Notes under the pieces: model-generated
What the model was told of the DNA's origin: nothing
The model's input: only the letters and a program-made list of their open reading frames with translations
The model's database searches: none
Made by a program: the position numbers and the translations under genes
In this document: piece after piece, positions 5,004 to 24,074 of the stretch
How positions within the stretch are numbered: position 1 is the first letter of the stretch
Layout of the letters: every line of letters begins with the position of its first letter
Sequence record: PQ850604.1
Source: Escherichia phage Haito_Bas83
Length of the DNA: 44,876 nucleotides
Strand: one strand, 5' to 3'

Positions 5004-5768
5004 TTAGCGCGGAATACCGCAAATCTCGTTTAACGTCTTCACGTCCAGCGCTACTGCCGTTGACTTCGGCTTGTCCGGGTATGGAATGAACTGTTCAACT
5101 TCAGGCCACGCCGCGATCAGCTTCTTGTCAGTATTGTGCATATCCAGCACGCCGGTAACAGTTAGTTTGAACGCGTCATACTTCGCACGCAATTCACGGC
5201 GGGCCTTGTCGTTGCGGTCCAGTCGCTTGCAGAAATCATGATCTGCCGGGTAGTCTGCGCGACCGCGCGGGAGATATATCGGCAGCGCTTTTCCATCTTC
5301 GTCCACTTCGCACACTGACGCGAGCATAATTTCCTCGTACCCCGGTACAATATCGCTGAGGTCCGGCGCGAGCTTATTCATATATTTATCTTCCCAGTAT
5401 CCGCGATGAACGCGGTATTTACGACCGTCGCCGCTCAATGACAAGGTGCGAACGTTACCGCCTGCGTTGATTTCGAAAGTGGCGTCATAAACGCTGCCGA
5501 TACCTTTCGGGCGGTCGGTGTTATAGCTATATGTCGCCTTGTTGGTATATACGCTGACGCCGTACATCTGCGACTGGTCATCGCGGATTGATACAATATA
5601 TGCGCGTAGCTCGGCGAACGTGTGAATGCCTTTTGGCATACAGTGCAACGTGATGTCGTACGCCAGGTCGCGAGAGTCCATCATGATTTTTTTGGCTTCA
5701 GTCGCGATTTCGTGGTCGCGCAGGATGTTAGCCAGAATCTGGTTTTTAATGTCTTTTGTCAGTCTCAT
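5004..5768 (-). CDS. hypothetical protein (moron gene, function unknown)
   Basis: 254-aa intact ORF on the opposite strand inside the head module, flanked by its own promoter and terminator; no motif I can assign. Confidence 0.55.
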   Translation of the reverse strand: MRLTKDIKNQILANILRDHEIATEAKKIMMDSRDLAYDITLHCMPKGIHTFAELRAYIVSIRDDQSQMYGVSVYTNKATYSYNTDRPKGIGSVYDATFEINAGGNVRTLSLSGDGRKYRVHRGYWEDKYMNKLAPDLSDIVPGYEEIMLASVCEVDEDGKALPIYLPRGRADYPADHDFCKRLDRNDKARRELRAKYDAFKLTVTGVLDMHNTDKKLIAAWPEVEQFIPYPDKPKSTAVALDVKTLNEICGIPR

Positions 5769-5807
5769 TTTTGTGTCCTCAAGGTTGGGGCTTCCGCCCC
5801 ATTTGGT

Positions 5808-6122
5808 TTAGTTAAACTTGATGTTTCCACCGGTGGAAGTTAAGCGAGCGCATACAGCTTCAACGGCATCGACGCACATTAAATCGTTAAAGGCTTCTAC
5901 CAGGGCGTTGATGAAAGATGCCGGAACCAGGCCACAAGCCGGATTTTCGAAGGTTGCGGAATTGATTGCAGCCTTTGCGGCTTCAGTAGCGTTCATGCTC
6001 TGGCACAGATTCAGCGCTTCCGCGTTACGCATTGCGTGAAAGGTAAAAGTATTGGCTACGGCAGCTTTATTGAAACGGGTCATTGCTGCGTCTACTGGAG
6101 TTGCTACGGTCATGTTATTCAT
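5808..6122 (-). CDS. hypothetical protein (moron gene)
   Basis: Start chosen at ATG 6122 (MNNMTVATP) with RBS GAAGGAAAAC; an alternative start is at 6137; co-oriented with 5004-5768. Confidence 0.45.
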   Translation of the reverse strand: MNNMTVATPVDAAMTRFNKAAVANTFTFHAMRNAEALNLCQSMNATEAAKAAINSATFENPACGLVPASFINALVEAFNDLMCVDAVEAVCARLTSTGGNIKFN

Positions 6123-6157
6123 TTTGTTTTCCTTCATATCTCTGTTGGTGTGCAACC

Positions 6158-16943: not shown

Positions 16944-17551
16944 CCACATTTAAATTGTACGGCGTCTTAGGACGTCGTTTTGGTAAAGTGCATAAGCTGG
17001 ACTGCTTCACACCTGGCGAGGGTATCACCGGCCTATGCGTGAAGTTGCCAGGCTTACAGGACTTTCTAATGTCGGCCCACCTGGAAAACATGATGTTCAA
17101 GGTGCGCAAGGGTAATCACACAATGACCGGCTACGACGAGTTGGGTGAGTTCCACGGCGACCGCGTAGTTACCATCGCGCCGGTTATGACTGGTGCTAAA
17201 AGCGGACTTGGACAATTGCTGGCTGGCGTAGCTATCGTGGTGGCGTCGTTCTACACTGGCGGGCTTGCCGCTGCCGCTTTCGGGGCTTCCGCTGCGACCG
17301 CCGCCGCTATCGGAACGGCGACGTTTTCGTTCGGTATGTCGCTTGCGCTGGGCGGCGCTATGCAATTGCTGTCACCGCAACCGAAAGGATTGCAGACACG
17401 GCAGGACGTGGATAACAAGGCGTCGTATGCGTTCGGCGGGCCGGTAAACACGACCGCGCAAGGCACAGCACTTGGTGTATTATGGGGAGAGCGTGAGATC
17501 GGCGGCGCTATTATTTCAGCCGGAATTGTAACCGAGGATTTGAACGAATGA
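16934..17551 (+). CDS. tail assembly protein I-like
   Basis: 205 aa with a Gly/Ala-rich hydrophobic segment; overlaps K and J as in lambda. Confidence 0.55.
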   Translation: MAMTTFKLYGVLGRRFGKVHKLDCFTPGEGITGLCVKLPGLQDFLMSAHLENMMFKVRKGNHTMTGYDELGEFHGDRVVTIAPVMTGAKSGLGQLLAGVAIVVASFYTGGLAAAAFGASAATAAAIGTATFSFGMSLALGGAMQLLSPQPKGLQTRQDVDNKASYAFGGPVNTTAQGTALGVLWGEREIGGAIISAGIVTEDLNE

Positions 17552-20500
17552 CGATTATCTACGACGTCACGGGCCATAAAGGCGGCGGTGGCAAACAGCA
17601 CACCCCACAGGAGACGCCTGATAGCCTGCATTCGCTGGCTAAAATCCGCATCTTGCTCGCACTGGGCGAGGGCGAATTTGAAGGCATTCCCGACCCTAAC
17701 GAATTACGGCAGCGTGTATACCTGGACGGCACACCGATCCAGAACGCCGACCTGTCGGATAACTTCCCCGGCGCGCGCGTGGAGTTCCGCCCCGGCACGC
17801 AGCACCAGGATGTGATTCACGGTTTTTCAGCGGTGGAAAGCGAGCAAACAGTAGGCGTAAAACTGGAACAGGGACAGCCGTGGGTCCGCCAGATTTCGGA
17901 CACCAGTCTGGACGCGGTGCGTATTCGAATCGGTATTCCGGCCCTGTACACTAACGAAGATAATGGCGACCTGGTGGGCGGGCGCATCGACTATAAAATC
18001 GTTGTGTATACCGATAACGCCGATCCGCGCGAGTTTACATTCGCTGCCGTTGGTAAAACAATGTCGCTGTACGAGCGGGACCACCGCATCGAATTACCGC
18101 CGAACGTTAACACCGGCTGGCGCGTGGAGGTGCACCGCACAACGGCAGACTCCACATCGGCGAAAGTGGTCAACGATATCCAGGTACAATCCATTACTGA
18201 GATTATCGACGCCCGCCTGCGTTACCCGCTAACCGCGCTGTTGTTCGTGGAGTTCGATGCTAAGGCGTTCCAGAACATCCCGCGTGTGTCCATCAAGTGC
18301 AAAGGCCGCAAAGTGCTAGTACCGAACAACTATGACCCCGTGAATCATACCTATTCTGGTAACTGGGACGGCACATTTAAACGCGCCTGGACGGATAACC
18401 CGGCATGGCACTGGTACGATATTTGTATTACTGAGCGCTTCGGCCTCGGTCGTCGTGTCAAGCCACAAATGCTAAACCGTTACGCGCTCTACCAGATTGC
18501 GCAGCGCTGCGATCAGATGGTCAGTGACGGCAACGGCGGACAAGAAATCCGCTTTAAGAATGATATGTACATTCAGTCGCAGACCGACGCCTGGACCGTG
18601 CTGAAGGATTTAGCGGCAATCTTTGCCGGTATGACCTGGTGGGGCAACCAGATGTTGAATATCGTCAGTGACCAGCCGGTCGCCGCGGTATCGCATACTA
18701 TCACCAACGCCTCGGTTATTGATGGTCGATTCGACTACGCATCGGGGAGCCAGAAAACTCGGTATTCCACGTTCTCGGTAGCCTACGGCAACCCGAAAAA
18801 CCATTACGAGGACGCCATCGCAACGGGCCAGCGTGTCGAACTGGTGCGCCGCCATAAGATTAACCGCCTTGATATCACGGCGATCGGCTGTACGCGTGAA
18901 TCTGAAGCGCAACGCCGCGGGCACTGGGCGCTAATCTCCAACCAGCTTGACCAACAAGTTAGCTTCAAGGTTGGCATGGAGGGGTTATTCTTTATTCCGG
19001 GGAGCGTAGTTGCGATCGCAGATACTAACATTTCTGGCGGCTTCGAGACACGCGGCGGACGTCTGTTGTCTGACCCGGGCACGCGCACCGTGCTGAACAC
19101 AGACAGCGAAATCACGTTCCGCCCTGGTGATAAATTCCTGGTGCGCACCAATAGCGGTAATGTGGAGACTCGCGAGATTGCCAGCGTCAACGGCAACCAG
19201 GTCACACTAAAAACCGCACTGGACGCCGACCCTATTCCAGACCAGCCGTTTTGCGTGGATGGCGATGATATCCAGTTGCAGAAGTTCCGCATCACCGACC
19301 TGGAATATGACGACGCTACCAGCACTTTTTCGGTGCGCGGGATTGAGTACAACGATAGCAAATATGATGCCGTTGATAATGGCGCGCGTCTTGATCCGGG
19401 TATATTCACGCAAGTGCCAGACGGCGTAATGAAGGGACCGGAATCCGTGACCATCACCCCGTCGCAGATTTCATCACAAGGCCAGCTAATCACTAACGTG
19501 GATATTGTATTCCCACCGGTGAAGGATGCCGTTGTGTACGAAATCCAGTGGCGACGTACCAGCTTGCAGAATCTGGAAGTACAGTGGGGCAACGACTGGG
19601 TGAACATCCCCCGCACGGCGTCGAACGGCGCGCACATCCCGAACGTGTTTTCGGGTAACTACCAGGCACGCGTCCGCGCTATCGGTATGGGCGAGATTTC
19701 ATCCCCGTGGGTGTCATCCGCCATCACGCCGGTGGAGGGTCGTCTTGGTGGGCTTAACGCGCCTATCATCACCAACGCGATTTCGGGCCTTCACCAAATT
19801 TTGTGGAAGTGGAACCACAACAACGCCGCGACGGATATTTCGTATACCGAGCTTGAAGTGCGCAAGCTGGGAGAAACGGAATGGAAATTCCTAACCAACG
19901 TCCCATATCCTGGGTCGGACTATGCACAAACGTCGCTGGAGTTCGGGATCTATCAGCAGTTGCGCGCGCGTGTAGCGGATAAAATCGGCAACCTGTCAGA
20001 CTGGTCCGATCCGTTCGACGGGCAGGTGAGTGACAAAGTTGACGAGTACATGCAGGGGCTTGATGACGAGTTCTTGACTTCCGAGGACGGTAAACACTTC
20101 CAGGAAGCAATCGACACCATTCCGCAAGGCATCTATGAGTCAATGCTTACGGACGCCCAGCAGTTATTCAACGCCCGCGCCGAGTATAAAGGGATTTATG
20201 CGGAAATTACGGTGGCGTATAACGTGGCGGCGGATGCTCACGAAGCCGTAGCGCAACTGGAGACGTTGATCGGCACGCGCCTTGACGATGCGGAAGCGTC
20301 AATCCACACGTTGCAGACAGCGCAAAGCACGCATGAGCAAGCATTCGCCCAGTACCAACAAACTGTTGCCGCTAAGTTCGGGGAGCAGGAAGCTGCCATC
20401 CAGCAGGTACAAACGGCAACGGCAGACGTAGCTGGCGCGCTGGCGGAGTATAAGACCCAGGTCGCGGCACAGTTCGGACAGCAGTCCGCAGCTATCGAGC

Positions 20501-20994
20501 AGAAGATGACGTCTTCGTTTAACCATGCTGGCGGTAGCGCCACCTACAGCCTAAAAGCTGGCGTGACGTATAACGGGACTTACTATGATGCCGGTATGCA
20601 GCTTTCAGTTGTGGCGGAAGGTGGCGCGGTTAAATCCCGCATCGCGTTCAAGGCGGACCAGTTCTACATCATGCACCCGTCAAATGGGTCGCTTTCGTCC
20701 GCGTTCATCGTTGACGGCGGGCAGGTGTATATCGACACGGCACGCATCAAGAACGCGTCCATTAACTTCGCGCAGATCACGGACACGCTGCAATCCAATA
20801 ACTGGAATCCGGGTAACAGCGGCTGGCGTATCGCGAAGGATGGCGGGGCAGAGTTCAACAACGTTACGGTACGCGGCAACCTGTACGCAAATACGGGTAA
20901 CTTCGGATTCTCCGGCGGGTCAGTGACTATTGACGCAACGGGCGTCAACGTGCCATTACCTGGAGGGGGCAGGGTGAAAGTCGGAACGTGGTAA
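17548..20994 (+). CDS. central tail fiber / host specificity protein J-like
   Basis: 1148-aa ORF at the end of the M-L-K-I-J series; size and position match lambda J. Confidence 0.8.
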   Translation: MTIIYDVTGHKGGGGKQHTPQETPDSLHSLAKIRILLALGEGEFEGIPDPNELRQRVYLDGTPIQNADLSDNFPGARVEFRPGTQHQDVIHGFSAVESEQTVGVKLEQGQPWVRQISDTSLDAVRIRIGIPALYTNEDNGDLVGGRIDYKIVVYTDNADPREFTFAAVGKTMSLYERDHRIELPPNVNTGWRVEVHRTTADSTSAKVVNDIQVQSITEIIDARLRYPLTALLFVEFDAKAFQNIPRVSIKCKGRKVLVPNNYDPVNHTYSGNWDGTFKRAWTDNPAWHWYDICITERFGLGRRVKPQMLNRYALYQIAQRCDQMVSDGNGGQEIRFKNDMYIQSQTDAWTVLKDLAAIFAGMTWWGNQMLNIVSDQPVAAVSHTITNASVIDGRFDYASGSQKTRYSTFSVAYGNPKNHYEDAIATGQRVELVRRHKINRLDITAIGCTRESEAQRRGHWALISNQLDQQVSFKVGMEGLFFIPGSVVAIADTNISGGFETRGGRLLSDPGTRTVLNTDSEITFRPGDKFLVRTNSGNVETREIASVNGNQVTLKTALDADPIPDQPFCVDGDDIQLQKFRITDLEYDDATSTFSVRGIEYNDSKYDAVDNGARLDPGIFTQVPDGVMKGPESVTITPSQISSQGQLITNVDIVFPPVKDAVVYEIQWRRTSLQNLEVQWGNDWVNIPRTASNGAHIPNVFSGNYQARVRAIGMGEISSPWVSSAITPVEGRLGGLNAPIITNAISGLHQILWKWNHNNAATDISYTELEVRKLGETEWKFLTNVPYPGSDYAQTSLEFGIYQQLRARVADKIGNLSDWSDPFDGQVSDKVDEYMQGLDDEFLTSEDGKHFQEAIDTIPQGIYESMLTDAQQLFNARAEYKGIYAEITVAYNVAADAHEAVAQLETLIGTRLDDAEASIHTLQTAQSTHEQAFAQYQQTVAAKFGEQEAAIQQVQTATADVAGALAEYKTQVAAQFGQQSAAIEQKMTSSFNHAGGSATYSLKAGVTYNGTYYDAGMQLSVVAEGGAVKSRIAFKADQFYIMHPSNGSLSSAFIVDGGQVYIDTARIKNASINFAQITDTLQSNNWNPGNSGWRIAKDGGAEFNNVTVRGNLYANTGNFGFSGGSVTIDATGVNVPLPGGGRVKVGTW

Positions 20995-21002
20995 ATGCGA
21001 AG

Positions 21003-21024
21003 GGGCCAGATGGCCCCTTTTTTA
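21003..21024. terminator. rho-independent terminator after J
   Basis: GGGGCC-AGAT-GGCCCC plus TTTTTT; the convergent minus-strand gene ends at 21022. Confidence 0.6.
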
Positions 21025-21987
21025 ATAGATGTTAGGGATGACTAATAGCGGGGTGGGTACGGCAATATTTTTGCCCGGCATTTGGAATTGCTGCCGTGAG
21101 TAGTTGCCAATAACGCGGTTTTTAGCGATGCGCACATTATTACCCGCCATTCGTATCCCGTTCATGCGCACATGGTTATAGCCTCCGTTGTTCTCAATGA
21201 GCGCACCGGTATATGAAAGCTGGATCAGACTATTACCGATGTGCTGGTCGCCGCCACCGATATTAATCGTTCGGTCGTAGACAAACGGCTTGTTTACCGT
21301 CGAGAACGTGACCTGCCCCTGGTTGTTAGTCATGGTGATACCGGTCCCCGGTGAGGGCGGCGTATTGTTGAATATGACCAGGTCCATATCAACGGCAGCG
21401 CCTACGTCGTCAATCCCGCCATAGGACGCATTACGGACAATGATACTTCCGCCATCGAAGCCAACCGATACGTTGCCGTCGTCCCAGCGCGCGAACGGGA
21501 CACCGCCGACTGGTAGCGGCATACTTCCGTTTACATGCACGCGCTGCGCATATCGGCACGTCATTAGCCGTGATACGTTGGATATGGCGGTGAAGTCCGT
21601 TGAGTTAGCCACCAGTAAGCCCGCATTGCGTGACCCCACCGGCAGCACTTCCATAATCACCCCGCCCCATGTTGGAAGCCCGCTGTATGCGTTATAGGCG
21701 TCCTCACCGCGCAAGGTGATTCCGCCATCCCCGTTACGTTGTATCGACGTCACATAAAACGGGTCTGGCAAGACCAGGGTCTGGTCGAATACCTCAATCA
21801 CTTCAACCGGATTAGTTAGGGCAACGACCAGTTCGGACCCTGGTGTCAGCGGTGTGTTAATGGACAGCGTCTTGTCAGACTGACAGCGCTGATTAAAGGT
21901 AGTGCAAAACGACGGAGCGCGAAGGCCCGCGGTTATCTCCATGACAGGTCTACCGTCGTTGTAGTCGATTAATATTCCGGCACCCAT
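21022..21987 (-). CDS. putative receptor-binding protein (opposite strand, downstream of J)
   Basis: 321 aa from ATG 21987 (RBS GGGAGTGG); Gly/Asn-rich with repetitive strand-like segments; translationally coupled to the upstream lipoprotein gene; location matches separately encoded RBP loci of siphoviruses. Confidence 0.35.
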   Translation of the reverse strand: MGAGILIDYNDGRPVMEITAGLRAPSFCTTFNQRCQSDKTLSINTPLTPGSELVVALTNPVEVIEVFDQTLVLPDPFYVTSIQRNGDGGITLRGEDAYNAYSGLPTWGGVIMEVLPVGSRNAGLLVANSTDFTAISNVSRLMTCRYAQRVHVNGSMPLPVGGVPFARWDDGNVSVGFDGGSIIVRNASYGGIDDVGAAVDMDLVIFNNTPPSPGTGITMTNNQGQVTFSTVNKPFVYDRTINIGGGDQHIGNSLIQLSYTGALIENNGGYNHVRMNGIRMAGNNVRIAKNRVIGNYSRQQFQMPGKNIAVPTPLLVIPNIY

Positions 21988-21989
21988 TA

Positions 21990-22211
21990 TTACCACTCCC
22001 GTGATTTAACTGATACAGTACCGGAAAAATTGCCGTCGCTATCGGCAGACAGGCCAGTGAAGCGCATGTCAACATCTCCGGCAGGGACTTTTTGCCCGTC
22101 AACGTAACGCAACATGCAGCTTCCGTAAGCCACCGTAATGCAATCACCGTTGTTGCGTTCTACAGCACAACCGGACAAAAGGACCGCACAAATCATAATT
22201 AAAGTTTTCAT
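21990..22211 (-). CDS. small lipoprotein, superinfection-exclusion candidate (Cor/Llp-like)
   Basis: Start at 22211 with RBS AGGAG; signal peptide MKTLIMICAVLLSGC with lipobox LSGC; 73 aa; adjacent to receptor-binding genes. Confidence 0.5.
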   Translation of the reverse strand: MKTLIMICAVLLSGCAVERNNGDCITVAYGSCMLRYVDGQKVPAGDVDMRFTGLSADSDGNFSGTVSVKSREW

Positions 22212-22291
22212 GTTATCATCTCCTATATTTGGTTGAGTTTTAGTATTACACCGCTCAACCAAGAATGCAACCAATTTATGAGGATTCAGCT

Positions 22292-24070
22292 ATGGCAGCG
22301 GGTACACTATCCGTAACGAATAACAGCAAGGCGGTTGTGGGCGTCGGCACAACGCTTACCGCGCTGAAGGCTGGCGACTTCCTGTCGCTGGTAGTGGGGC
22401 AAGTCCCTTACACTGTCGCTATTGCATCCGTAGAAAGCGACACCGCGCTTACGCTGGTGCTGCCGTTCGATGGCCCAACGGCAACCGGCCTCGCATGGGA
22501 TAGCGTGGCGCGCGATACCATGTCCCTTGCAACGATGGGTGTAACCGTCCAGGCGCAGAAAGCGCTCCGTATGCTTATCGCGGACGAAAACAACTGGCGT
22601 GCAATCTTCGGCGACGCTGAGGAGATCACTGTCACGCTCCCGAACGGGCAAGTAATGCAGGGTATGTCATGGGGCTATCTGTCGCAATTGCTCAAGCAAG
22701 TTGACCCCGTAGAGATGCGCAACCTGCAACAACAAGCCGCCGCATCGGAAGCCGCCGCGCAGGGATACCGGAACGAGGCAGAAGGCTTCAAGACTGATAC
22801 GCAGGCGATCCACGACGCCACCGATCAGATTAAGACTGATACGCAGGCGATCCACGACGCCACCAACACCATCAAGACGCAGACCAACCAGATTAAGACT
22901 GATACGCAGGCCATCAAGGACGAGACTGACCAGATTAAGACGGATACTGGCGCTATTCGCGATCAGGCCAATACAGCGAAGACGGACGCGCAAGCCGCCC
23001 GTGATGCCGCGCGGGGATACCGGAACGAGGCCGAACAATTCAAGAATGAGATCGACCCGTCGAAATTGCTGGCAAAGGCCAGCAACCTTAGCGACGTTGC
23101 AGACGTTGCAGAAGCGCGCGACAACTTAGGTATCGGGCCGACGGATACACTTAATATTGGTGGCCTGGTAACGTCCGGCGGTATCTCCGCGGGTCGAAAC
23201 ACGTGGGACGGGTCAAACTGGGGTGGCCAGGCGATTAACATCTCGCTAGCCATCCTATCACCAGACGGAAACTCAACACCCGGCTTATATGTGCGCAAAA
23301 GCAACGGCGAAAACGGATATGCGACTGAATGGCTGTATTATGAGAACACGAACGCCTGGGCGACGAACGCGCGAGTTGTCAGCTATCAATTCCGTTCCCC
23401 GAAGGGGCCTATGGGTTATAGTCAGTTGTGGTCTGAAGCTGCGGTACGAGTGGACCCGTACAACGGGCAGCTTAACGCGGAAAACTATCAGTCGTTAGTC
23501 GCGGGGGCGGCTGCGACGCAAGGCCACGGATTTGCGGGCGGTGTTTCGTTCGGGCTTATGACCACCGGCAGCAACAACTGGCCCCGGGCGCAGATCTCGA
23601 TCGGCACACAGGACCGTGACGCCGCGGGGAATATGGGGCAGCAGATGCATTTTCGCTTTGATGACCAGGGGCGGATCTCTTACAACGGGCCGCAAGGCAC
23701 GGGGTCATTCCAGCAAGTGCCCGCATCGGACCGCAACCTGAAGCATGATATTGCCGATGATGCCAGCAGCACCGCCTACGACAACATCAAGGCGATGCGA
23801 TTCCGCACGTTCATATTCAACAACGACGAACAAGAACGGCAGCGCCGCGGGATTATTGCGCAGGAAGTGGAAGAAATCGACCCGCTGTATGTGAAGCACC
23901 GAGAGTATAACAACCATGAGTTAAACGGGCCATTGATGCACCAGCTTGAACTGGACACAACGCCGCTGCTACTCGACACTATGCGCGCGTTGCAGGATAC
24001 GATTAAGCAGGTGGAGGAGTTGAAGGCCGAGATCGCAGCTATGAAACAAGTGGAGGAGTTGAAGAAATAA
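22292..24070 (+). CDS. side tail fiber with C-terminal intramolecular chaperone (peptidase S74-like) domain
   Basis: Start MAAGTLSVTN with RBS GAGGA (track ORF starts 27 nt earlier); tandem 14-aa repeats (TDTQAIHDATDQIK); C-terminal ...SDRNLKHDIAD...MRFRTFIFNNDEQERQRRGIIAQEVEEIDPLYV... resembles the autocleaving chaperone domain of endosialidase and T5 L-shaped fibers. Confidence 0.7.
   Translation: MAAGTLSVTNNSKAVVGVGTTLTALKAGDFLSLVVGQVPYTVAIASVESDTALTLVLPFDGPTATGLAWDSVARDTMSLATMGVTVQAQKALRMLIADENNWRAIFGDAEEITVTLPNGQVMQGMSWGYLSQLLKQVDPVEMRNLQQQAAASEAAAQGYRNEAEGFKTDTQAIHDATDQIKTDTQAIHDATNTIKTQTNQIKTDTQAIKDETDQIKTDTGAIRDQANTAKTDAQAARDAARGYRNEAEQFKNEIDPSKLLAKASNLSDVADVAEARDNLGIGPTDTLNIGGLVTSGGISAGRNTWDGSNWGGQAINISLAILSPDGNSTPGLYVRKSNGENGYATEWLYYENTNAWATNARVVSYQFRSPKGPMGYSQLWSEAAVRVDPYNGQLNAENYQSLVAGAAATQGHGFAGGVSFGLMTTGSNNWPRAQISIGTQDRDAAGNMGQQMHFRFDDQGRISYNGPQGTGSFQQVPASDRNLKHDIADDASSTAYDNIKAMRFRTFIFNNDEQERQRRGIIAQEVEEIDPLYVKHREYNNHELNGPLMHQLELDTTPLLLDTMRALQDTIKQVEELKAEIAAMKQVEELKK
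22791..22979 (+). repeat. in-frame tandem ~42-bp repeats within the fiber gene
   Basis: AAGACTGATACGCAGGCGATCCACGACGCCACC... repeated about four times with variation. Confidence 0.6.
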
Positions 24071-24074
24071 GAGA

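Follow-up and report, generated by a model that had tools for sequence, protein, structure and literature searches.

A predicted LptD-specific receptor-binding protein and exclusion lipoprotein downstream of the J-like tail-tip gene of a Dhillonvirus siphophage

Introduction

Loci for receptor-binding proteins (RBPs) situated downstream of gpJ and accompanied by cognate superinfection exclusion (SE) genes have been described for siphophages (Maffei et al. 2021, PMC8594841). The RBP of phage Oekolampad (Bas18), RBP_Oeko, was solved by cryo-EM on the outer face of LptDE (PDB 9rpt, 9rpw, 9rqi), and LptDE of Shigella flexneri was used for these structures (Dunbar et al., PNAS 2025, PMC12685063). 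For homologues of the pair analyzed here, LptD resistance mutations and LptD binding by RBP_Oeko were reported, and infection by Oekolampad depends on the LptD loops EL4, EL5, and EL11 (PMC12685063). The same study solved the lipoprotein Rtp45 in a complex with LptDE(M), to which it binds from the periplasmic side (PDB 9rps), and inferred from the structure that it sterically displaces loop EL4 from inside the barrel. Expression of the Oekolampad-type lipoprotein did not succeed. The LptD RBP family has meanwhile been confirmed in 12 phages (bioRxiv 10.64898/2026.04.02.716166), a preprint on a receptor screen in which Bas85 is not mentioned. In the phage's own publication, Bas83-85 were already predicted to be LptD-specific (PMC11990801).

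Functionally similar systems use another receptor. Protein pb5 (Oad) and Llp of phage T5 likewise are a monomeric RBP on the tip of the central fibre and a small outer-membrane lipoprotein that acts periplasmically against RBP binding. However, searches of Pfam and PDB did not detect any sequence relationship to the pair described below, and the T5 receptor FhuA is a TonB-dependent transporter, whereas LptD is the LPS translocon. The modes of action differ, too: Llp affects FhuA by long-range allostery, whereas Rtp45 physically displaces EL4 (PMC12685063). In T1, phi80, N15, and the FhuA-type Dhillonviruses such as JLBYU60 (gp27), a Cor-type lipoprotein gene occupies the same slot on the minus strand, divergent from the lateral fibre gene. 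JLBYU60 gp27 shares the 16-aa signal peptide and the lipobox with the lipoprotein of this study, but its mature domain is unrelated, and the JLBYU60 cassette has two tip proteins (gp25 and gp26; 100 and 224 aa) on the plus strand with the lipoprotein alone on the minus strand.

Results and Discussion

Layout of the locus

The window, i.e. the whole stretch of 44,876 nucleotides analyzed here, is 99.9% identical to the Dhillonvirus Escherichia phage RuthEpting_Bas85. At positions 21022-22211 it contains two minus-strand genes, the first for a 73-aa lipoprotein and the second, 2 nt apart, for a 321-aa protein. This pair is located between the J-like tail-tip gene (17548-20994, plus strand; 1148 aa, with the Pfam domains FNIII-A_GpJ, Phage-tail_3, and Phage_Tail_Tip) and a lateral tail fibre gene (22292..24070, plus strand; phrog_1980, E 2.2e-137), whose annotated start at position 22299 of the record corresponds to window position 22292. 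The lateral fibre has an intramolecular chaperone (Peptidase_S74, E 2e-11), and for Bas85 Gp29 such a chaperone domain and a fibre tip like that of T5 have been described (Humolli et al. 2025). It is the second receptor-binding protein of the phage and, as a neighbour, does not belong to the pair. The open reading frames and the Pfam and PHROGs families confirm the preliminary description of a minus-strand lipoprotein with the lipobox LSGC and a 321-aa protein between the J-like and side-fibre genes.

According to the open reading frame listing and the sequence, the lipoprotein gene (21990..22211) extends from the ATG at 22211-22209 to the stop codon at 21992-21990. The reading frame of the 321-aa protein spans 21022..21996 and the gene itself 21022..21987, with the ATG at 21987-21985 and the TAA stop codon at 21024-21022. 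At the junction, which reads TGG TAA TA ATG, 2 nt separate the stop codon of the first gene from the start codon of the second. A Shine-Dalgarno motif (GGGAG, 22000-21996) precedes the ATG of the second gene by 8 nt, and translational coupling of both genes appears plausible from this arrangement. Because their scores against curated families far exceed the thresholds (see below), both reading frames are real genes and not chance ORFs.

We consider it very likely (probability about 0.93) that the pair serves this Dhillonvirus siphophage as a host-recognition module with specificity for LptD. It matches the already known RBP and SE system, and nothing was found that departs from it. The evidence comes from both proteins and from the comparison with related loci.

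The predicted receptor-binding protein

The 321-aa protein belongs to the DUF6453 family of Pfam (PF20051; 397.6 bits versus a cut-off of 25, E 4.3e-119), with residues 4-297 aligned to positions 1-290 of the 291 positions in the model, and it matches phrog_1265 over residues 1-321 (E 6e-118). In PDB it aligns to RBP_Oeko (9rpt_C, 9rpw, 9rqi) gaplessly from residues 1-321 to 1-321 (E 9.9e-193). Both proteins share 286 of 321 residues (89.1%). The 35 substitutions accumulate in residues 1-160, where 24 of them are found, and only 2 affect residues 281-321. Gln299, the sole LptD-contact residue named in the accessible text of Dunbar et al., is retained. The RBP of AugustePiccard (Bas01), which is 96% identical to Rtp44, is a more distant homologue (35% identity), and relatives of the 321-aa protein were found in 434 phage records. 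On this basis, and by sequence comparison, the target of the 321-aa protein is predicted to be the outer-membrane LPS translocon LptD(E). The protein had earlier been described as Gly/Asn-rich and repetitive. Its composition (11.8% Gly, 9.0% Asn) agrees with the former attribute but not the latter, as a self-BLASTP at E<=10 returned the identity match only; the DNA contains a single 15-nt imperfect direct repeat.

It is conceivable that the protein has kept the fold and the role of a tail-tip RBP while its 35 substitutions shifted the specificity to another outer-membrane protein, or to another surface or state of LptD. Such a shift would be compatible with an identity to the Oekolampad RBP of 89% rather than 100%, with the plating of Bas85 on K-12, which differs from that of Bas14-18, and with the suggestion of Black et al. 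that LptD RBPs form three groupings with slightly different binding modes. However, O-antigen glucosylation was identified as the cause of this difference in plating, and it acts on the lateral fibre and not on the terminal receptor. Moreover, far more distant members of the family (33-35% identity; Bas01, Rtp, and OzMSK) still use LptD, and the cognate lipoprotein is almost identical to its counterpart in Oekolampad (72/73 residues), a phage that uses LptD, which argues for the same receptor. A changed specificity thus seems improbable, and LptD remains the preferred target.

The probable exclusion lipoprotein

The precursor of the 73-aa protein reads MKTLIMICAVLLSGC followed by AVERNN, with the lipobox L-S-G-C and the putative lipidation site Cys15. 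The signal peptide and lipobox (MKTLIMICAVLLSGC), read from the sequence, are encoded at 22167..22211 on the minus strand, where they form the right-hand boundary of the cassette discussed below. This type II signal peptide (MKTLIMICAVLL-SGC) has a hydrophobic core with a Kyte-Doolittle 12-residue mean of 2.68. It is followed by Ala at position +2, and no inner-membrane retention residue is present; the Lol +2 rule predicts sorting to the outer membrane. The protein is a member of the Phage_lipoprotein family (PF24052; 75.4 bits versus a cut-off of 27, E 3.6e-21) and matches phrog_4281 (E 3.7e-33) as well as the Rtp45 chain in PDB (9rps_D; E 2.1e-8, about 40% identity). It is identical to bas18_0026 of Oekolampad except for A55S (72/73 residues), shares 41% of its residues with bas01_0029, and has relatives of its mature part in 244 phage records. 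Cys24 and Cys32 align with the disulfide pair Cys30 and Cys38 of Rtp45, and neither cysteine varies when the protein is aligned with those of Bas18 and Bas01 and with phi32_106 of phiEco32.

These assignments differ from the existing annotation. The label for the 321-aa protein in GenBank and PHROGs is 'membrane protein; moron, auxiliary metabolic gene and host takeover', and the lipoprotein is called 'hypothetical' in the deposited record. If the annotations were correct, the former would be a host-takeover moron in the membrane and the latter a spanin-type lysis protein or an unrelated lipoprotein. Besides the label itself, one relative of the lipoprotein (H117) that is annotated as 'u-spanin' would speak for this view. 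However, no transmembrane helix was found in the 321-aa protein (maximum Kyte-Doolittle 19-residue mean 1.22), nor was a signal peptide seen. A membrane protein character was rejected for the lack of any hydrophobic segment, and the homologue is a soluble protein, whose structure shows it attached to LptDE from the extracellular side. As for a role of the lipoprotein in lysis, its mature part lacks the C-terminal transmembrane segment, its homologue Rtp45 was solved bound to LptDE, and holins, an endolysin, and an Rz-like spanin are annotated elsewhere in the genome (at about 4.8 kb and 42-43 kb of the record). We thus give the annotations hardly any credence and retain the assignment to the RBP and SE families.

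Least credible is a Cor- or Llp-type lipoprotein that inactivates FhuA, as the weak match to Cor (phrog_1119, E 6e-4) and the genomic position, which in FhuA-type Dhillonviruses is taken by the Cor-type gene, are outweighed by the confinement of this match to residues 1-30 with the signal peptide, by a BLASTP alignment to JLBYU60 gp27 that covers the 16-aa signal peptide only, by the lack of a T5 Llp chain in a PDB search at E<=10 and of an Llp-type family in Pfam or PHROGs (a test at the sequence level), and by a partner RBP from the LptD family instead of the FhuA-type gene set. Hence, the Cor/Llp type proposed in the preliminary description has to be replaced by the Rtp45 family (PF24052) for the lipoprotein and the Rtp44 family for the RBP, with LptD instead of FhuA as the predicted receptor. 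Its more general proposal, a separate RBP with a cognate receptor-blocking lipoprotein downstream of J, is well founded, as homologues were shown to be just that by cryo-EM and genetics (PMC12685063, PMC8594841).

Comparison with related loci

The same order and orientation of J (plus strand), RBP (minus), and lipoprotein (minus) exists in Oekolampad and AugustePiccard and is replaced in JLBYU60, which bears out the comparison with RBP loci of related phages that had been suggested earlier. Oekolampad (bas18_0025 and bas18_0026), a member of the same genus, also shares the J and lateral-fibre flanks and the intergenic region, and its J tip is 82-89% identical to that in the window. The lateral fibre of Oekolampad differs beyond the N-terminus, the homology being lost between window positions 23131 and 24011, and this divergence fits a different targeting of O-antigen. 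The same families (phrog_1265 and phrog_4281) are represented in the Drexlerviridae by Rtp44 and Rtp45 of phage Rtp, of which AugustePiccard has near-identical copies. In these phages, too, the lipoprotein gene comes first and the RBP gene second, both are tightly abutted and run opposite to J, and the lipobox, the Cys pair, and a VPAG(D/E)VD motif are conserved. Differences are the low identities to the Bas01 proteins (35% for the RBP, 41% for the lipoprotein), the affiliation with another phage family, a methyltransferase gene that follows the locus in Bas01 where the window has the lateral fibre gene, and a 1-nt overlap between the lipoprotein and RBP genes in Bas01 versus the 2-nt gap in the window, which Oekolampad resembles in this respect.

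Proposed mechanism

No experiments on the Bas85 pair itself and no exclusion assay on the 73-aa protein were found in the literature, and we infer from homology that both proteins would act as their homologues do in LptD binding and exclusion. The 321-aa protein would then be the terminal RBP, by homology a soluble protein of two beta-sandwiches, whose base (the N-terminal side) may dock on the J-like central fibre at the C-terminal tip of the latter. The opposite, loop-bearing end of the RBP would enter the lumen of the open-state LptD barrel and contact loops EL3-5 and EL11, leading to irreversible adsorption. Infected cells would produce the 73-aa protein, which after lipidation at Cys15 would reach the outer membrane and reside in its inner leaflet, where it could bind LptDE from the periplasm and push a hairpin up through the barrel. 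EL4 would thereby be displaced outward and LptD locked in a shape that the RBP cannot bind. This exclusion would protect infected cells from superinfection and keep progeny from being wasted on debris. The binding mode of the Oekolampad-type lipoprotein is an assumption in this model, because the available SE structure is that of Rtp45 (about 40% identity) and the Oekolampad type was not expressed.

Expression of the gene pair

J and the RBP gene are convergent, their stop codons lying 27 nt apart. Between them, a GC-rich hairpin with a 9-bp perfect inverted repeat (21000..21019) has a folding energy of -16.9 kcal/mol (z -3.98) on the plus strand and -15.7 kcal/mol (z -3.27) on the minus strand. 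On the plus strand it is followed by six T, whereas the minus-strand form has no U tract, and this hairpin is a predicted intrinsic terminator for J on the plus strand. The stem is kept in Oekolampad, but the loop differs. A scan for consensus promoters and terminators that covered positions 20700-22600 yielded 4 promoter-like (1.7 expected) and 2 terminator-like (2.1 expected) motifs, none of them convincing. It missed the J terminator, apparently since some of the T residues are taken up by the stem, and for this reason our reading of the terminator rests on folding instead.

On the other side, an 80-bp intergenic region (22212..22291) separates the divergent lipoprotein and lateral-fibre genes. 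It contains a Shine-Dalgarno motif for the lipoprotein (GGAG, 22223-22220) and a candidate minus-strand promoter with the -35 motif TTGCAT (22270-22265) and a TG-extended -10 motif, AATACT (22247-22242). This candidate, which was read by eye and is absent from the output of the consensus scan, scores 7/12. The region also holds a 9-bp perfect inverted repeat (22229-22237 / 22254-22262) that is unique in the window (0 expected by chance) and folds unremarkably (z -1.8 and -1.3). It was rejected as a repeated operator, as the half-site has 10 matches with <=1 mismatch in the window versus 8 expected. The whole intergenic region is conserved in Oekolampad and in the FhuA-type phage JLBYU60 and thus lies outside of the swapped cassette. 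RBP and lipoprotein may form one transcript from a promoter in this region. The orientation may point to early expression, as proposed in the preliminary description. As the RBP, a virion protein, is co-oriented with the lipoprotein and probably co-transcribed after it, the pair could not be purely early.

An exchangeable cassette that includes the J tip

The comparison with JLBYU60 revealed a new detail, an exchangeable cassette that begins near residue 1086 of J and reaches as far as the signal peptide of the lipoprotein, which it includes. Nucleotide homology to this FhuA-type Dhillonvirus, about 90%, ends at window position 20803 and starts again at 22165. Between the same flanks, JLBYU60 has different genes including a lipoprotein of the Cor family (phrog_1119, E 1.8e-27), whose first 16 aa are identical to those of the 73-aa protein, with no similarity detected in the rest. 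The identity of the J proteins drops from 80-100% to 20% in the final alignment block, and the last ~50 aa of J are closer to the LptD-type AugustePiccard of the Drexlerviridae than to the FhuA-type JLBYU60 of the same genus. The C-terminal tip of J thus covaries with the RBP type across families, which is also a new detail. The 3' end of J (20804..20994, plus strand), which codes for about 63 C-terminal aa of the tail-tip protein, forms the left part of the cassette and probably provides the tip on which the RBP docks.

Homologues in phiEco32-like podoviruses

The phiEco32-like podoviruses (Kuravirus and other Gordonclarkvirinae) carry both protein families, although unlinked, which is a further new detail. 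Their nozzle and needle-like tail genes are immediately followed by the gene for a DUF6453 protein of 343 aa. The gene for a PF24052 lipoprotein with the Rtp45-like motif RPDGWCA..GVCV is located about 45 kb away among small genes, apparently in the early region. The adjacency of RBP and lipoprotein is thus usual but not universal.

That the pair in the window exemplifies a portable LptD kit of two genes, which is found beyond siphoviruses with J-type tail tips, is a tentative idea to which we assign somewhat less than an even chance. If it holds true, LptD would be the still unrecognized terminal receptor of the phiEco32-like podoviruses, and the DUF6453 protein would cap the podovirus tail needle. 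Transposon screens could not have revealed LptD, because it is essential. No published link between Kuravirus and LptD was found in the literature, and the paper on the structure of SU10 does not mention gp19 of this phage.

Conclusions

The RBP and the exclusion lipoprotein of this phage, so far annotated otherwise, can both be named with confidence. The boundaries of the cassette may guide swaps of receptor specificity among Dhillonviruses, in which the mature lipoprotein should be transferred jointly with the RBP and the J tip. The lead from the podoviruses, if confirmed, would extend the targeting of LptD to a second virion architecture. For the phage itself, LptD can be predicted as the terminal receptor, and this outer-membrane protein, being essential and conserved, is relevant to phage therapy and to the design of antibiotics.

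Gene arrangement at the locus

In the genome of Escherichia phage Haito_Bas83, two minus-strand genes lie between the plus-strand genes of the J-like tail tip (17548-20994; FNIII-A_GpJ, Phage-tail_3, and Phage_Tail_Tip matches) and the lateral tail fibre (annotated start 22292, to 24070; Peptidase_S74 chaperone). This pair, proposed in a preliminary description, is borne out by the open reading frames and the sequence. Its first gene, at 22211-21990, codes for a 73-aa lipoprotein precursor (N-terminus MKTLIMICAVLLSGC, followed by A) and its second, at 21987-21022, for a 321-aa protein. A gap of 2 nt separates them, and GGGAG is located 8 nt upstream of the ATG of the second gene. Between this gene and the convergent J gene, both strands fold into a GC-rich hairpin (21000-21019). 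On the J strand (-16.9 kcal/mol, then six T) it is predicted to be a good intrinsic terminator for J; on the opposite strand the stem forms without a U tract.

The stretch compared, 20900-22400, is 99.9% identical to Escherichia phage RuthEpting_Bas85 (PQ850624.1), which is a Dhillonvirus and comes from the second BASEL collection, record coordinates at the locus being window coordinates plus 7. The window has 44,876 bases and the record 44,889; coordinates agree near 5 kb but have shifted by 7 at 15.4 kb, indicating small indels between the two. A second opposite-strand pair (5004-6137) lies within the plus-strand structural (head and packaging) module. It consists of a 254-aa Nmad5 "nucleotide modification associated domain 5" protein (5004-5768, minus strand; PF18757, E 2e-56) and a 109-aa partner (5808-6137, minus strand; phrog_24635, no known function).

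A probable pair for receptor binding and superinfection exclusion

The pair downstream of J very likely (probability about 0.93) encodes a receptor-binding protein (RBP) for LptD, of the outer-membrane LPS translocon, and an Rtp45-type exclusion lipoprotein. The 321-aa protein matches Pfam DUF6453 (397.6 bits) and aligns end to end and without gaps with PDB chain 9rpt_C (E 9.9e-193; 286 of 321 residues identical), a chain also present in 9rpw and 9rqi. Used as a tblastn query, the 9rpt_C sequence retrieved phage Oekolampad (Bas18) at 100% identity and thus represents the Oekolampad RBP. The fold has been described as a pair of lectin-like beta-sandwiches whose base is conserved and whose tip bears loops (Black et al., 2025). 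According to the accessible text of Dunbar et al. (2025, PMC12685063), the interface with LptD covers approximately 1,700 A2 and involves chiefly the LptD loops EL3-5 and EL11, and infection as well as binding in vitro are lost in the LptD point mutants Y671N and D352Y. Gln299, the single RBP contact residue named in that text, is conserved in the 321-aa protein. Most of the 35 substitutions relative to the Oekolampad chain (24) fall within residues 1-160, and residues 281-321 carry only 2. The protein is Gly/Asn-rich as described earlier (Gly 11.8%, Asn 9.0%), but self-comparison found no internal repeat in what had been called a repetitive sequence.

GenBank and PHROGs label the 321-aa protein as "membrane protein / moron". 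This is a mis-annotation, because the protein is homologous to an LptD RBP and hydropathy along its length revealed no hydrophobic segment. In PQ850624.1 (Bas85_0027-0028) the RBP carries the label [quoted passage not shown]. The exclusion lipoprotein is listed there as a "hypothetical protein", and one lipoprotein homologue is annotated as u-spanin. Through the phrog_1265 label the error propagates into many phage genomes.

The 73-aa protein belongs to Pfam PF24052 "Phage lipoprotein family" (75.4 bits) and matches Rtp45 (PDB 9rps_D, E 2.1e-8). It shares 72 of 73 residues with Oekolampad bas18_0026, and its identity to the Rtp45-like bas01_0029 is 41%. Its Cys24 and Cys32 occupy the alignment positions of Cys30 and Cys38, which form a disulfide in Rtp45. 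The lipidated Cys is followed, at position +2, by Ala, which by the established Lol +2 sorting rule predicts transport to the outer membrane. Such sorting would fit the location of Rtp45, whose structure was solved with the protein bound to LptDE from the periplasmic side and sandwiched by LptE and LptM (Dunbar et al., 2025, PMC12685063). A hairpin of Rtp45 rises through the lumen of the LptD barrel and pushes EL4 aside by as much as 20 A, which is incompatible with RBP binding.

The functional part of the earlier proposal, an RBP with a cognate receptor-blocking lipoprotein, is thus upheld by the homologies to the Oekolampad RBP and Rtp45, whereas the family names Cor and Llp do not hold. T5 pb5/Llp and Cor work in a similar way, but the 73-aa lipoprotein belongs to neither the Llp nor the Cor family, and exclusion of the Rtp45 type is steric, not allosteric. 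The LptD RBP/exclusion-lipoprotein pair is an already known system, given the published structures (Dunbar et al., 2025), the earlier account of RBP loci downstream of gpJ that include cognate superinfection-exclusion genes (Maffei et al., 2021, PMC8594841), the confirmation of the RBP family across 12 phages (bioRxiv 10.64898/2026.04.02.716166), and the statement that Bas83-85 carry the LptD-type module (Humolli et al., 2025, PMC11990801, description of Bas85).

An exchangeable cassette

The order J(+), RBP(-), lipoprotein(-) is shared by Oekolampad and AugustePiccard, the latter a member of the Drexlerviridae, and the opposite orientation is therefore a conserved property of the module rather than a peculiarity of this genome. 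The bounds of the module were taken from a nucleotide comparison with the FhuA-dependent Dhillonvirus JLBYU60. Homology of approximately 90% extends along J as far as 20803, disappears, and returns at 22165 within the signal-peptide codons of the lipoprotein, from where it runs on across the intergenic DNA and into the gene of the lateral fibre. The exchangeable unit delimited by these breakpoints consists of the C-terminal stretch of J (approximately 63 residues) together with the RBP and the mature lipoprotein. Relative to JLBYU60, the receptor-specificity cassette spans 20804-22164; one recombination boundary falls at about residue 1086 of J and the other within the signal peptide. Between the same flanks, JLBYU60 has two plus-strand tip proteins and one minus-strand Cor-family lipoprotein. 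The first 16 residues of the latter and of the 73-aa protein are identical, and BLASTP aligned nothing between them past residue 16; one 16-aa signal peptide thus serves Rtp45-type and Cor-type lipoproteins with unrelated mature parts. This shared signal peptide accounts for a weak, spurious Cor match on residues 1-30.

The last approximately 50 residues of J are closer to those of the LptD-type AugustePiccard, from another family, than to those of the FhuA-type JLBYU60 of the same genus. This likeness favours a role of the J tip as the adaptor that matches the RBP, as also suggested from k-mer features (bioRxiv 10.64898/2026.04.02.716166). In the lateral fibre gene, 5' homology ends at about 23061 (JLBYU60) or 23131 (Oekolampad) and resumes near or just past the 3' end at 24074 or 24011, respectively; 23061-24074 thus marks another swap region, independent of the first, which covers the distal, O-antigen-binding part of the fibre.

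Candidate expression signals

The 80-bp divergent intergenic region is kept across LptD-type and FhuA-type Dhillonviruses and contains a good Shine-Dalgarno sequence for the lipoprotein. A candidate minus-strand promoter in this region (TTGCAT, 17 nt, TG-extended AATACT) is plausible but weak, and a consensus promoter scan did not report it. A perfect 9-bp inverted repeat, TTGGTTGAG-N16-CTCAACCAA (22229-22262), would overlap its spacer and transcription start; folding of the repeat was unremarkable. The repeat is single in the window, with no further copies of its half-site there, and 8 of its base pairs are kept in both Oekolampad and JLBYU60, where the one change would still permit G-U pairing in RNA from the minus strand. 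It may be an operator or an RNA hairpin. The orientation of the pair had been taken to imply early expression. However, the two genes cannot be exclusively early, since the gene of the virion RBP is second in the presumed operon.

Relatives in phiEco32-like podoviruses

Tblastn with either protein also matched phiEco32-like podoviruses (Kuravirus and other Gordonclarkvirinae). Their DUF6453 members include Bas88_0015 (L005:4659-5690; 88.4 bits; E 1.6e-12 against 9rpt_C) and the 343-aa phi32_21 of phiEco32 (L008:12446-13477), labelled "membrane protein". Both genes directly follow those of the nozzle and needle-like tail proteins and precede the transglycosylase and ejection genes; by gene order, they may correspond to SU10 gp19, a protein not mentioned in the SU10 virion paper. 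The PF24052 lipoprotein phi32_106 (L006:2426-2707; 93 aa, 124 bits) has the lipobox LTGC and an Rtp45-like RPDGWCA..GVCV motif. It is encoded approximately 45 kb from the DUF6453 gene, among clustered small genes that resemble an early region. A literature search found no published link between phiEco32-like podoviruses and LptD, and transposon screens are blind to LptD dependence because LptD is essential (bioRxiv 10.64898/2026.04.02.716166). The presence of unlinked DUF6453 and PF24052 members in these podoviruses suggests that LptD may be their unrecognised terminal receptor.
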